64,000 nt of DNA from Waddliaceae bacterium. GTDB taxonomy: Bacteria > Chlamydiota > Chlamydiia > Chlamydiales > Waddliaceae. The DNA lies in the NCBI GenBank assembly GCA_963724325.1, contig CAVRUH010000001.1, positions 448,001 through 512,000 of the forward strand, read 5' to 3'. The notes under the pieces were generated by a model. That model worked only from the letters and a program-made list of their open reading frames with translations. It ran no database searches and had not been told where the DNA came from. Positions within the stretch are counted from its first letter, which is position 1, and each line of letters opens with the position of its first letter. The position numbers and the translations under genes are program-made. Below, one piece after another: positions 25,635 to 29,757 of this stretch.

Positions 25635-25725
25635 ACCACCGAGATCACTGAGCTGACAAGAGGTCAAACAAAGAGAATGTTTTTACTCTTATGTGATCTC
25701 TTGTGAACTCTGTGATCTTTGTGGT
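25635..25725. terminator. long imperfect hairpin (REP-like palindrome or bidirectional terminator) between convergent genes
   Basis: 32-bp arms ACCACCGAGATCACTGAGCTGACAAGAGGTCA / TGATCTCTTGTGAACTCTGTGATCTTTGTGGT. Confidence 0.6.
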
Positions 25726-26887
25726 TAAAAATGTTTTTTAGGGTTTAAAATAATGCAACCATGGCGGGGGTGCTTGCAAGGTCTTTGGGTGTTTTTTCAT
25801 CGTTATTTTTGATTGATTTGCCTGCCCCGTGTTTAATGAGGTATTTTGCAATATTGCAACTACTTGACTTCACAGCATTGTGGAGAGGCGTATTACCATC
25901 GGCATCGGTTAAGTTCATTTCCGTATTGGGTCTAATGGCCCACTTAACAGCATTAAAATTCTTTGCTTGGACCCCTCGAAATAAATATCGTCCCAGAGCA
26001 TCGCCATCGAAATGGTCTGGTTGCTGTTGGGTCATATGGTTTCCTAGATATTGCACCAGTGAATTGATTTCATTATCAATACTGTAAACAAAAAGGGTTT
26101 CTGCGAACCATTTTGACTTTAAAAGTTCTGTCCTTGTATAAAGATCTACCCGCTTTAAACATGATTGAGCAATATTTAAAATTTGTACAATTTCCTTCCC
26201 TCGTGGTGTTATTTGATTCAATTTACCAGATTCTATAAGGTAATTGGAGGCCTCACCGTGACTGATTTTTTCCAGATAAGAACGAATTGAATTCAAAGTT
26301 ATGTGCGGAGGCTCTTTTTTAGCCAACAACAATATCATTTCGGCAAGAAAATGGTGATCGCATACGATATCAGCCATATATTGCGTTTTGTCTTCTTCGG
26401 ATCCTTTATGCGGATAGTTTTTCCAGGCTCCTGACATCTTGATAATATTTTCGGAGAGGAGAAAGTAGGATTTCTCTAGAGTATTTTGGCGGGTGATCCA
26501 GCACCAAAGCTTAAGTAATAGCTTTTGAATGGCATTGTAGTTCATTTCAAGTTTCTGTTTCGCTTTTTCGAATCGAGCCCTTATGGCTAACCATGCAGGT
26601 TCGGAATCTTTGAGAGATCTTCTGGCTGTTTTTGAATTTTGGATGATCTTATTGGCAAAATTAAAGACATGTCTAAGATTTTGATCAACCTTTGAATCTC
26701 CCTTTGGCTTATTCTCTAAGGCATTATTTACTATAGAGAATTTCTCATTTGGCGCTATGTGCGCCAAAACATTTAGAATAGTGGCGGTCATACATTACCT
26801 CCGGTATTAATAAGTCTTGCAGCACTACTTTGGGCATTTTTACATTCGATCTCTGTAGGTGTATATTCTGCAAATTTTACTGTATCT
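25666..26887. repeat. 1222-bp direct repeat, left copy (putative long target-site duplication)
   Basis: Matches 28536-29757 at offset 2870 and abuts the left IR of the IS. Confidence 0.92.
25745..26791 (-). CDS. ankyrin-repeat protein, copy 1
   Basis: C-terminal DADGNTPLHNAV....CNIAKYLIKHGA...IKNNDEKTPKDLA; protein identical to 28615-29661. Confidence 0.9.
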   Translation of the reverse strand: MTATILNVLAHIAPNEKFSIVNNALENKPKGDSKVDQNLRHVFNFANKIIQNSKTARRSLKDSEPAWLAIRARFEKAKQKLEMNYNAIQKLLLKLWCWITRQNTLEKSYFLLSENIIKMSGAWKNYPHKGSEEDKTQYMADIVCDHHFLAEMILLLAKKEPPHITLNSIRSYLEKISHGEASNYLIESGKLNQITPRGKEIVQILNIAQSCLKRVDLYTRTELLKSKWFAETLFVYSIDNEINSLVQYLGNHMTQQQPDHFDGDALGRYLFRGVQAKNFNAVKWAIRPNTEMNLTDADGNTPLHNAVKSSSCNIAKYLIKHGAGKSIKNNDEKTPKDLASTPAMVALF

Positions 26888-28535
26888 CCTGACTTCTGCC
26901 AAAATTTGAATATCCTCAAATATCCAAAAAAAGAGGTTTGATTTGCAATGGGTTGCAATTTTTCTTAGTGCAAAAAACCGCACTAAGCTCTATTTTTAGT
27001 AGATGCGGGGAAATCTTTCTATTCGAAAAGTTCGCACTTCATCCGGTGCGATTGCTGTACAAATAATTCGTTACGCCCAAGGCAAACGTATTATCATTCG
27101 TCATATTGGTAGCTCTCATACTGATGATGAATTAGCTGTGCTTTATCAAGAGGCTGAAATTGTAAGAGAACAACTATCTCTTCAACCCTCTCTTTTTTCA
27201 ATAATAGAAAAACCCTCAAAGATCCTACATGTAGACCATTTACAATTAACTTCAATCACCCATCGCTTTGCTCATTTAGCCTTGAAAAAATGCTCTCAAT
27301 TATGTGGATTGGCATTTCTTCATCCTTTATATCAAGATCTTGCTTTGATGCGTATAGTAGAGCCTGCTTCAAAATTACGCACAATTGAATTATTGGAAAA
27401 TTATTTTGAAATATCTTACGCAGAACGATCTGTCTATCGTTTACTTCCCAAGCTTTTAGAGCACAAAGATGCTATTGAAAATGCAGCCTATCATACTGCT
27501 AAAGTACATTTTAACGAGTCGTTTGCTCTTGTTCTCTATGATGTCACGACTTTGTACTTTGAAAGCCACGAACCTAATGATGAGCTAAGAGCTCGAGGAT
27601 TTTCCAAAGATGACAAATCAAAACAACCGCAAATTGTTGTAGGATTGCTAGTAACTCAACAAGGGTTTCCTCTTAGGCATGAAATCTACAAAGGGAACAC
27701 TTTTGAAGGACATACAATGCTGGATGTAGTTAAGGTATTTCAAAAACATCATTCCAATTGTAAGCCGATCATTGTTGCTGATGCCGCCATGCTTTCTCAA
27801 GAAAATATGGATCTTCTGGAGGCTGAAAACTATCAATATATTGTAGGTGCTCGGCTTGCAAATGGTTCGAAAGCTTTTATTGAATTAATTACATCACGAT
27901 TGAAAAAGAAAGAAGGAGATATCATTCGTTTACCTTATCCTAATCGTTCTTACGAGATAGTCTGTTCTTACTCGGAAAAACGAGCAAAGAAAGATCAATA
28001 TGAATTTGAAAAACAAATCATGAAAGCCCAAGAGATAATTGTAAAGCAGGAATCAGGAAAACGAGCCAAATTTGTCAAAAAATCAAAAGCCCATAATGAT
28101 GCATTTGTTTTAAATAAAGAATTAGAAGAGAAGGCAAAAAAACTTATTGGTATTAAAGGGTACTGCACAAATATTTCTGAAGGCATTTTATCAAATATTC
28201 AAGTTATTGAATACTATCATGCGCTTTGGAATGTGGAACAAGCATTTCGCATGTCAAAAACAGATCTTAAAGCTCGTCCAATTTTTCATCATACACACGA
28301 TGCTATTAAAGCTCATGTCTTGCTCTGCTTCATGGGACTAATGATGGGAAAATTTTTGGAAATTAAAACAGGTCTATCTTTGCGAAGAGTGCGAGATATT
28401 CTCTGGAATGTTCAAGAAGCTCACATCAAGGACGAATTAACAGGAAAAACCATTACATTACAAACCAACATGAAAGATTTTAATGAAAGTAAACTTGTTG
28501 AATTTCTGAAACCGCACTAAATGGCAGAAGTCAGG
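26888..28535 (+). mobile_element. IS1634-family insertion sequence, 1648 bp
   Basis: Perfect 14-bp terminal IRs CCTGACTTCTGCCA (26888-26901) / TGGCAGAAGTCAGG (28522-28535) around a DDE transposase. Confidence 0.92.
27003..28520 (+). CDS. IS1634-family DDE transposase
   Basis: IRKVRTSSGAIAVQI, LYDVTTLYFE, GFSKD.K..QPQIVVGL, GNTFEG.T, VADAAM, Y..LW.VEQAFR.SK.DLKARP.FH, I.AH.L.CF. Confidence 0.93.
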   Translation: MRGNLSIRKVRTSSGAIAVQIIRYAQGKRIIIRHIGSSHTDDELAVLYQEAEIVREQLSLQPSLFSIIEKPSKILHVDHLQLTSITHRFAHLALKKCSQLCGLAFLHPLYQDLALMRIVEPASKLRTIELLENYFEISYAERSVYRLLPKLLEHKDAIENAAYHTAKVHFNESFALVLYDVTTLYFESHEPNDELRARGFSKDDKSKQPQIVVGLLVTQQGFPLRHEIYKGNTFEGHTMLDVVKVFQKHHSNCKPIIVADAAMLSQENMDLLEAENYQYIVGARLANGSKAFIELITSRLKKKEGDIIRLPYPNRSYEIVCSYSEKRAKKDQYEFEKQIMKAQEIIVKQESGKRAKFVKKSKAHNDAFVLNKELEEKAKKLIGIKGYCTNISEGILSNIQVIEYYHALWNVEQAFRMSKTDLKARPIFHHTHDAIKAHVLLCFMGLMMGKFLEIKTGLSLRRVRDILWNVQEAHIKDELTGKTITLQTNMKDFNESKLVEFLKPH

Positions 28536-29757
28536 AAACAAAGAGAATGTTTTTACTCTTATGTGATCTCTTGTGAACTCTGTGATCTTTGTGGTTAAAA
28601 ATGTTTTTTAGGGTTTAAAATAATGCAACCATGGCGGGGGTGCTTGCAAGGTCTTTGGGTGTTTTTTCATCGTTATTTTTGATTGATTTGCCTGCCCCGT
28701 GTTTAATGAGGTATTTTGCAATATTGCAACTACTTGACTTCACAGCATTGTGGAGAGGCGTATTACCATCGGCATCGGTTAAGTTCATTTCCGTATTGGG
28801 TCTAATGGCCCACTTAACAGCATTAAAATTCTTTGCTTGGACCCCTCGAAATAAATATCGTCCCAGAGCATCGCCATCGAAATGGTCCGGTTGCTGTTGG
28901 GTCATATGGTTTCCTAGATATTGCACCAGTGAATTGATTTCATTATCAATACTGTAAACAAAAAGGGTTTCTGCGAACCATTTTGACTTTAAAAGTTCTG
29001 TCCTTGTATAAAGATCTACCCGCTTTAAACATGATTGAGCAATATTTAAAATTTGTACAATTTCCTTCCCTCGTGGTGTTATTTGATTCAATTTACCAGA
29101 TTCTATAAGGTAATTGGAGGCCTCACCGTGACTGATTTTTTCCAGATAAGAACGAATTGAATTCAAAGTTATGTGCGGAGGCTCTTTTTTAGCCAACAAC
29201 AATATCATTTCGGCAAGAAAATGGTGATCGCATACGATATCAGCCATATATTGCGTTTTGTCTTCTTCGGATCCTTTATGCGGATAGTTTTTCCAGGCTC
29301 CTGACATCTTGATAATATTTTCGGAGAGGAGAAAGTAGGATTTCTCTAGAGTATTTTGGCGTGTGATCCAGCACCAAAGCTTAAGTAATAGCTTTTGAAT
29401 GGCATTGTAGTTCATTTCAAGTTTCTGTTTCGCTTTTTCGAATCGAGCCCTTATGGCTAACCATGCAGGTTCGGAATCTTTGAGAGATCTTCTGGCTGTT
29501 TTTGAATTTTGGATGATCTTATTGGCAAAATTAAAGACATGTCTAAGATTTTGATCAACCTTTGAATCTCCCTTTGGCTTATTCTCTAAGGCATTATTTA
29601 CTATAGAGAATTTCTCATTTGGCGCTATGTGCGCCAAAACATTTAGAATAGTGGCGGTCATACATTACCTCCGGTATTAATAAGTCTTGCAGCACTACTT
29701 TGGGCATTTTTACATTCGATCTCTGTAGGTGTATATTCTGCAAATTTTACTATATCT
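28536..29757. repeat. 1222-bp direct repeat, right copy
   Basis: Begins at the base after the right IR; at least 3 substitutions relative to the left copy. Confidence 0.92.
28615..29661 (-). CDS. ankyrin-repeat protein, copy 2 (original operon context)
   Basis: Same protein as copy 1; ATGA overlap with the upstream gene. Confidence 0.9.
   Translation of the reverse strand: MTATILNVLAHIAPNEKFSIVNNALENKPKGDSKVDQNLRHVFNFANKIIQNSKTARRSLKDSEPAWLAIRARFEKAKQKLEMNYNAIQKLLLKLWCWITRQNTLEKSYFLLSENIIKMSGAWKNYPHKGSEEDKTQYMADIVCDHHFLAEMILLLAKKEPPHITLNSIRSYLEKISHGEASNYLIESGKLNQITPRGKEIVQILNIAQSCLKRVDLYTRTELLKSKWFAETLFVYSIDNEINSLVQYLGNHMTQQQPDHFDGDALGRYLFRGVQAKNFNAVKWAIRPNTEMNLTDADGNTPLHNAVKSSSCNIAKYLIKHGAGKSIKNNDEKTPKDLASTPAMVALF

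Follow-up and report, generated by a model that had tools for sequence, protein, structure and literature searches.

An insertion sequence between two copies of an ankyrin gene

The 64,000-nucleotide stretch of Waddliaceae DNA analysed here, referred to as the window (G000:C1:448001-512000, from the 2.37 Mb draft genome G000 of 11 contigs), carries an insertion sequence (IS) of the IS1634 family set between two direct copies of a 1,222 bp segment that includes a complete ankyrin gene. The IS lies on the forward strand at 26888-28535 (1,648 bp), its ends being fixed by four other copies in the genome that are 100% identical to it. It is bounded by a perfect 14 bp left inverted repeat (IRL, 26888-26901, forward strand, CCTGACTTCTGCCA) and by a right inverted repeat (IRR, 28522-28535, reverse strand) that is the perfect complement of IRL. 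Copy 1 of the putative target-site duplication (25666-26887, 1,222 bp, first base A and last base T, as in the other duplications) adjoins IRL, and copy 2 (28536-29757, also 1,222 bp), which keeps its native upstream context, adjoins IRR. The repeat meets both IS ends exactly, and similarity stops at the outer boundaries with zero bases beyond. The two copies are equal at 1,219 of 1,222 positions (99.75% identity), the three substitutions being T at 26018 against C at 28888, G at 26492 against T at 29362, and G at 26882 against A at 29752. Two of these fall in the ankyrin open reading frame (ORF), both synonymous, and the third is an Ile/Thr change in the fragment of the upstream gene. There is no third copy of the repeat in the genome, and a 1.2 kb repeat of this identity, judged from the sequence, cannot have arisen by chance.

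The first-pass annotation of this DNA, made from its letters alone, had placed the IS at the same coordinates with 14 bp inverted repeats, and both are borne out, the coordinates being exact and the inverted repeats perfect. It had also described the same 1,222 bp as abutting both IS ends, which is correct to the base, and the two copies as identical, which the three substitutions contradict. Its exclusion of a composite transposon holds as well: one IS lies between the repeat copies and none outside them, rather than the two bracketing IS of a composite element. The locus sits in the middle of a 1.1 Mb contig. The nearest other copy of the IS is 28.6 kb away in inverted orientation (G000:C1:444656-446303, 1.7 kb to the left of window position 1), and the DNA between the two, window positions 1-26887 plus the 1.7 kb, could invert through recombination between these inverted copies.

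The only ORF of the element encodes a 505-residue transposase (27003-28520, forward strand), which matches both the NCBIfam model of the IS1634 family (NF033559, 335.1 bits against a cut-off of 100, residues 28-495 of 505) and Pfam DDE_Tnp_1 (PF01609, E 1e-12, residues 179-447), a DDE domain of the IS4-related type. The next-best family model, IS1380, reaches 30 bits (cut-off 180), and the assignment to the IS1634 family, already proposed in the first-pass annotation, is upheld. The element length of 1,648 bp and the tip CCTGACTT at both ends fit the family table in the available part of De Palmenaer et al. 2008 (PMC2266710), which gives 1,500-2,000 bp and a terminal consensus of C-----YT; related elements in the phylum have CCTGAC or CCCGAG tips in common. 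The review also lists an incomplete YREK motif among the traits of the family. The AT-rich duplication of 5-6 bp that is typical of the family is not seen in this genome, where the duplications measure 44-1222 bp. These long duplications match the atypical behaviour of IS1634 and IS1549 rather than the family norm, and so do not exclude the element from the family.

Five copies of the 1,648 bp element, 100% identical, are present in the genome, one of them interrupted by another IS, together with one degenerate relative (C1:887950-889604, 73% identical, with a broken reading frame). With an intact 505-residue transposase, perfect inverted repeats and five identical copies, the element is a complete and apparently active IS. 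The first 60 nt of the degenerate relative are 100% identical to the left end of the active element, which suggests partial gene conversion. The IS that interrupts the copy on contig C5 (G000:C5:155378-156849, 1,472 bp, with a 15 bp duplication) has IS481 as its best NCBIfam match, which at 144 bits does not reach the cut-off of 224, and is itself present in six 100% identical copies.

The genes at the locus define what the repeat contains. Copy 2 of the ankyrin gene (28615-29661, reverse strand, 348 residues) is the last gene of a MoxR-DUF58-204aa operon, its start codon overlapping the stop codon of a 204-residue ORF (ATGA, 29658-29661). That ORF (29658-30272, reverse strand) is intact and has no family match; upstream of it in the operon are a DUF58/VWA gene (30272-31141) and a MoxR AAA+ ATPase gene (31146-32168), both on the reverse strand. 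Copy 1 (25745-26791, reverse strand, 348 residues) encodes an identical protein and keeps its own GGAGG ribosome-binding site; the IS separates it from the operon promoter. The repeat holds 79 nt past the ankyrin stop codon, the whole ankyrin ORF and the final 100 nt of the 204-residue ORF, confirming the earlier description of a complete 348-residue ankyrin ORF with the 3′ end of the upstream gene. The duplicated 3′ fragment (26788-26887, reverse strand, 33 codons) aligns by tblastn to residues 172-204 of the 204-residue ORF with 94% identity, and is part of a predicted hybrid ORF of 56 residues (26788-26958, reverse strand) that joins IS-derived codons to the fragment and ends in an ATGA overlap with ankyrin copy 1. 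The convergent left neighbour is a gene for an MFS transporter-acyltransferase fusion (23852-25624, forward strand). The left nick site (25665/25666) lies 41 nt beyond the stop codon of this gene, in the intergenic spacer, and the right nick site (29757/29758) lies inside the 204-residue ORF, 100 nt short of the stop codon. Duplication of the whole interval leaves the 204-residue gene and the MoxR-DUF58-204aa-ankyrin operon intact on the right.

A promoter-like site spans the IRL junction (26874-26902, reverse strand), with a −35 hexamer TTGGCA in IRL, a 17 nt spacer and a −10 hexamer TAAAAT in the duplicated target, and faces ankyrin copy 1. It matches the consensus at 10 of 12 positions; the scan that found it gave 20 sites where 15.5 are expected by chance, so that this candidate, which could be a junction promoter, is without statistical support and a lead only. 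Among the six genome junctions, compared by eye, a good −10-like hexamer 8 nt from IRL occurs at this locus alone, so that the idea of a promoter −10 box beside one IS end finds no support here.

Flanking repeats of related elements

Comparison of the left and right flanks of every IS copy in the genome (n = 6) identified abutting direct repeats at all six, each of a different length. The five 100% identical copies bear repeats of 178 bp (C11:10110-11757, exact), 196/197 bp (C7:451576-453223, one homopolymer indel), 440 bp (C5:154132-157266, exact), 564 bp (C1:444656-446303, exact) and, at this locus, 1,222 bp with three substitutions, a variability in length like that of IS1634 and IS1549. 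The degenerate relative on C1 has an exact repeat of 44 bp. The flanks of the other copies had been named in the first-pass annotation as one place to check its reading, and they agree with it, all having repeats of 44-564 bp. The 440 bp repeat takes in a whole ORF of 87 residues. The 197 bp and 564 bp repeats cover the 3′ ends of convergent genes, leaving both neighbours whole, and the 178 bp repeat lies within an ORF of 2,743 residues, which is disrupted. The other insertions examined in this genome spare the ORFs beside them. A gene with a single nick site is preserved, so that breakage is confined to genes within which the entire duplicated segment lies.

Of 400 genomes of the phylum scored in a protein search, 23, G000 among them, gave IS1634-family matches at E≤1e-30. 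We took 19 regions from ten genomes, and seven more from G371, and refined the element ends by comparison of copies; a truncated element (L057) and a diverged one with undefined ends (L060) were excluded from the counts. Long abutting repeats of 75-1691 bp are found at 22 of the 25 full-length IS1634-family elements, in nine other genomes, among them near-complete assemblies of 1-2 contigs (G024, G170 and G099). The lengths are 75 bp in G024, 119 and 172 bp in G384, 226 and 185 bp in G170, 322 bp in G165, 201 and 299 bp in G393, 415 and 76 bp in G099, 447 bp in G018 and 155 bp in G151 (counted with its left end, in L072, unrefined), and ten identical copies in G371 bear repeats of 160, 209, 243, 312, 357, 399, 413, 800, 936 and 1691 bp. 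The transposases of these elements are only 27-37% identical to that of the window, except in G024 and G384 (69-79%), and the trait of long duplication is therefore spread over diverged members of the family.

The longest of these repeats, in G371 (L075, G371:C14:81300-92200), flanks an IS at 4515-6344 of that region as two exact 1,691 bp copies (2824-4514 and 6345-8035), and holds a whole gene for a 186-residue UVR-motif protein and about 90% of an ATP:guanido phosphotransferase gene. The idea put forward in the first-pass annotation, that the IS can copy whole genes in one step, thus finds company in the 87-residue ORF on C5 and the UVR-motif gene in G371. In another region of that genome (L061, C5, 1-20000), two inverted IS copies about 4 kb apart (7666-10195 and 13604-15433) look bare. 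Their target-duplication halves are swapped, 209 and 243 bp, both exact, an arrangement that, as read from the flanks, is the footprint of an inversion between the two copies. The right-hand repeat of one further copy in G371 is split by a 1,479 bp IS.

Some elements show rearranged ends. At G371:C5:7666-10195 and G371:C7:36482-39011 the final 700 bp of the 1,830 bp IS occur a second time, immediately after the element, and at the C7 locus the whole 2,530 bp unit is flanked by a 413 bp duplication; this enlarged form seems to have moved as one unit. In G393 (L066, G393:C1:250000-264000) the IS right end has its terminal 19 nt tandemly repeated ahead of the 299 bp target duplication.

Taken together, the 28 duplications are 44-1691 bp long (median 271 bp); five exceed 514 bp and none is shorter than 44 bp. 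Their lengths fit a log-normal distribution (Shapiro p 0.91), in which 1222 bp stands at the upper 3.7%. As the lengths form one smooth distribution with 1222 bp in its upper tail, this locus is the tail of a continuous process rather than a special event. Helical periodicity of 10.5 bp was not detected in the repeat lengths (p 0.29 and 0.34; n = 11 and 17).

The joints themselves follow a simple rule. Joint bases were counted at 22 of the 28 duplication-bearing copies, from eight genomes (L066, both L061 copies, L074, L071 and L072 being left out), and at 37 of 44 joints the IS end meets an A in the target (binomial p 1.5e-13, for an A frequency of 0.30), including 11 of the 12 joints in this genome. 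The second target base is most often G (20 joints), followed by A (12), T (10) and C (2). Both joints at the locus have the A (IRR side, ggtc|AAAC; IRL side, aagc|AGAT), so that each IS end looks like a primary transposase joint that chose its own site. This bears on the suggestion that the structure was built in two or more steps, either by insertion of the IS at the joint of an older tandem duplication or by recombination between IS copies. Such a history has a parallel in the 13 kb IS1634-flanked repeats of Mycoplasma mycoides PG1, as far as the available part of that report goes (PMC1798306), and the duplication must have some age, since its copies differ at three positions. It would, however, require an exact hit on the joint, repeated at 28 of 31 elements with a new length each time; unequal crossing-over leaves an IS outside the repeat, and none is there; and both joints obey the A rule of primary transposase joints. 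We consider an origin in several steps very improbable.

Origin of the duplication

The recurrence of the same arrangement, at all six copies in this genome and at 22 of 25 elements in nine others, leads us to conclude that the 1,222 bp target-site duplication was very probably made by one transposition of the IS1634-family element. The single event assumed in the first-pass annotation is in this way strongly, if indirectly, supported. It is hardly credible that the second 1,222 bp copy comes from misassembly around a multi-copy IS. The three substitutions indicate that the assembler resolved two distinct sequences, and hence that two physical copies really exist; the repeat lies in the middle of its 1.1 Mb contig, and the same architecture is found at all six IS copies and in the independent 1-2-contig assemblies of G024, G170 and G099. 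What speaks for an artefact is that the genome is a draft of 11 contigs, that reads spanning the locus are absent from the four metagenome runs described below, and that another repeat pair differs by a homopolymer indel alone, a typical sequencing error.

Several observations weigh against an origin in a single transposition. Three of the 31 elements (L063, L067 and L068) have no flanking repeat. No empty site was found among 30 related genomes, in which DNA matches are limited to the region of the DUF58 gene, and the only genome of the same genus (G001) is about 74% identical and is without the ankyrin gene. A protein-guided scan of metagenome contigs and a scan for the exact 25 nt of the right boundary were both empty, in a set that possibly does not include the records of the source genome. 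In four soil-metagenome runs, which contain 38-48% of the words sampled, the contigs (95-654 nt, at low depth) break off at the IS ends; not one spans an IS-repeat joint or skips the IS. Most members of the family make duplications of 5-6 bp according to the available part of the 2008 review (PMC2266710), and ISGka5 makes one of 6 bp in the accessible text of its report (PMC8024623), so that long duplication is not a family-wide rule. The IS copies show zero differences and the repeat three, and the chance that all three would fall in the repeat, if mutations were even, is 0.077. Finally, the repair step that would produce the duplication is pure inference.

The three differences may also say something of the age of the insertion. 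Elsewhere in this genome the repeats are free of substitutions over 1,182 bp, with one indel in 197 bp, whereas this one has three substitutions in 1,222 bp, a contrast that is not significant alone (Fisher p 0.35). It fits a history in which this copy would be the oldest and the probable source of the other four. Alternatively, gene conversion or a polishing artefact could account for three differences beside identical IS copies.

Some of the soil-metagenome contigs that end in the IS (at window positions 26887 and 28535-28538; runs X1 and X2) continue into flanks unlike those of this locus, one of them matching the flank of the C5 copy. The IS may therefore lie at further sites in environmental populations.

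A mechanism can be proposed by which one transposition could duplicate a gene-sized segment. Strand transfer by the two IS ends would take place on opposite target strands, the two A sites lying 1,222 bp from each other rather than 5-10 bp (window 25665/25666 and 29757/29758). The target 3′-OH ends would then prime strand-displacement synthesis over the intervening duplex, leaving the segment on both sides of the IS. The 204-residue gene, with one nick site, would remain whole, and the ankyrin gene, wholly between the nicks, would be doubled. Copy 2 would thereby retain its operon context, and copy 1 would come to lie behind the IS left end, possibly under a hybrid promoter made of an IRL −35 and a target −10. 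That duplications are found at 28 of 31 elements suggests an enforced polarity, or else selection against deletions.

Two proposals address how the ends come to be so far apart, and both draw on the finding, in the part of the source available to us, that IS1634-family transposases bind the β sliding clamp through a motif placed at the transposase C-terminus (PMC4549789). The first, which we put forward as a doubtful but specific possibility, is a synthesis-coupled two-step transposition in this branch of the family, in which the second IS end follows the polymerase and sliding clamp. The first end would join 5′ of an A; the freed target 3′-OH would start strand-displacement synthesis; and the second end, travelling with polymerase and clamp, would attack the template strand at another A, some 40 bp to at least 1.7 kb downstream. 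If true, this scheme would explain the near-constant occurrence of duplication over deletion, the log-normal lengths and the reported clamp binding, and would mean that these IS spare genes, can be undone when their repeats recombine, and double a gene in a single step.

The second proposal keeps the same single event and places each IS end in a different sister duplex behind a replication fork, at positions 1,222 bp apart, with resolution yielding a tandem duplication that carries the IS at its joint. We judge this unlikely. Clamp binding, as described in the available portion of the same source (PMC4549789), would put these transposases at forks, and the lengths are variable, long-tailed and without helical periodicity, as such a process would give. 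A free choice of two sites, however, predicts about equal numbers of deletions and duplications, and 28 of 31 elements bear duplications, a balance in which selection could hide deletions. The appeal to the clamp, in the fork proposal as in the first, is a lead only, for no clamp-binding motif was recognised confidently in the window transposase, which has QPSLF at residues 61-65 and QTNMKDF at 487-493, and none is conserved in an alignment of nine transposases from the phylum.

The ankyrin gene and comparison with known elements

The duplicated gene encodes a protein with ankyrin repeats at residues 274-339 (Pfam Ank_2, 40.2 bits against a gathering threshold of 27.3) and no match over its N-terminal 270 residues. 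The first-pass annotation had called it effector-like and had seen in the IS a possible driver of effector family expansion in a chlamydial symbiont. Neither idea finds support here. The former is a guess for which the ankyrin repeats are the sole ground: with the best Legionella effector model, that of the Dot/Icm effector AnkY/LegA9 (NF043029, cut-off 600 bits), the protein reaches 43 bits, and through the ankyrin repeats only. As for expansion, the genome has no ankyrin paralogue beyond the pair, and among the 5.8 billion proteins searched none is related to it at E≤0.001. In the same-genus genome G001 (L073, G001:C1:850000-868000) the MoxR-DUF58-204aa order is conserved and the ankyrin gene is absent; as the operon there has three genes, the ankyrin gene is a lineage-specific addition. 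Both ‘effector’ and ‘family expansion’ are therefore conjecture, and the duplicated gene is one concrete case for symbiont genomics, not evidence of family expansion.

For the IS itself, the 28 duplications measured here, from identical multi-copy elements, constitute a constraint that any mechanistic model must fit, as does the simple rule at both IS ends that the joined target base is A. An upper bound of 1.2-1.7 kb is enough for a whole gene to be copied in one event. Kilobase repeats around an IS can also be deleted without a scar, or amplified further, by homologous recombination.

IS1634 of M. mycoides subsp. mycoides SC was reportedly described by Vilei et al. in 1999, and long variable duplications by IS1634 and by IS1549 of Mycobacterium smegmatis are said to have been reported in the late 1990s. 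The first-pass annotation had named both elements as makers of long variable direct repeats, in agreement with the 2008 review, whose available part gives 8-514 bp for the two and notes that a mechanistic model was lacking (PMC2266710). The elements studied here resemble IS1634 and IS1549 in their copy-specific long direct repeats, in carrying one ORF within 1.6-1.9 kb bounded by short inverted repeats, and in belonging to the same family by transposase model. They differ in that five of the 28 duplications exceed the 514 bp of that source (PMC2266710), including 1,222 bp here and 1,691 bp in G371, in that the duplications take in whole genes, and in residing in another host phylum. Among the literature searched, which left subscription journals and ISfinder/TnPedia largely outside, no IS1634-family duplication longer than 514 bp and none in Chlamydiae was found.

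The contrast is greater with ISGka5 of Geobacillus kaustophilus, a typical member, which shares the transposase family, the size class and the terminal consensus C-----YT; where its duplication is 6 bp, as given in the accessible text of its report (PMC8024623), none of the 28 duplications here is shorter than 44 bp. The 13 kb repeats of M. mycoides PG1, as described in the available part of that study (PMC1798306), are flanked by IS1634 copies and unstable through recombination between them. They resemble the present locus in the tandem doubling of a segment, with an IS where the two units meet, and differ from it in being IS-flanked, where here one IS lies between the copies and none outside. 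What we describe is thus a known phenomenon extended in size, with the upper bound moved from about 0.5 kb to 1.2-1.7 kb and the recorded range approximately tripled.

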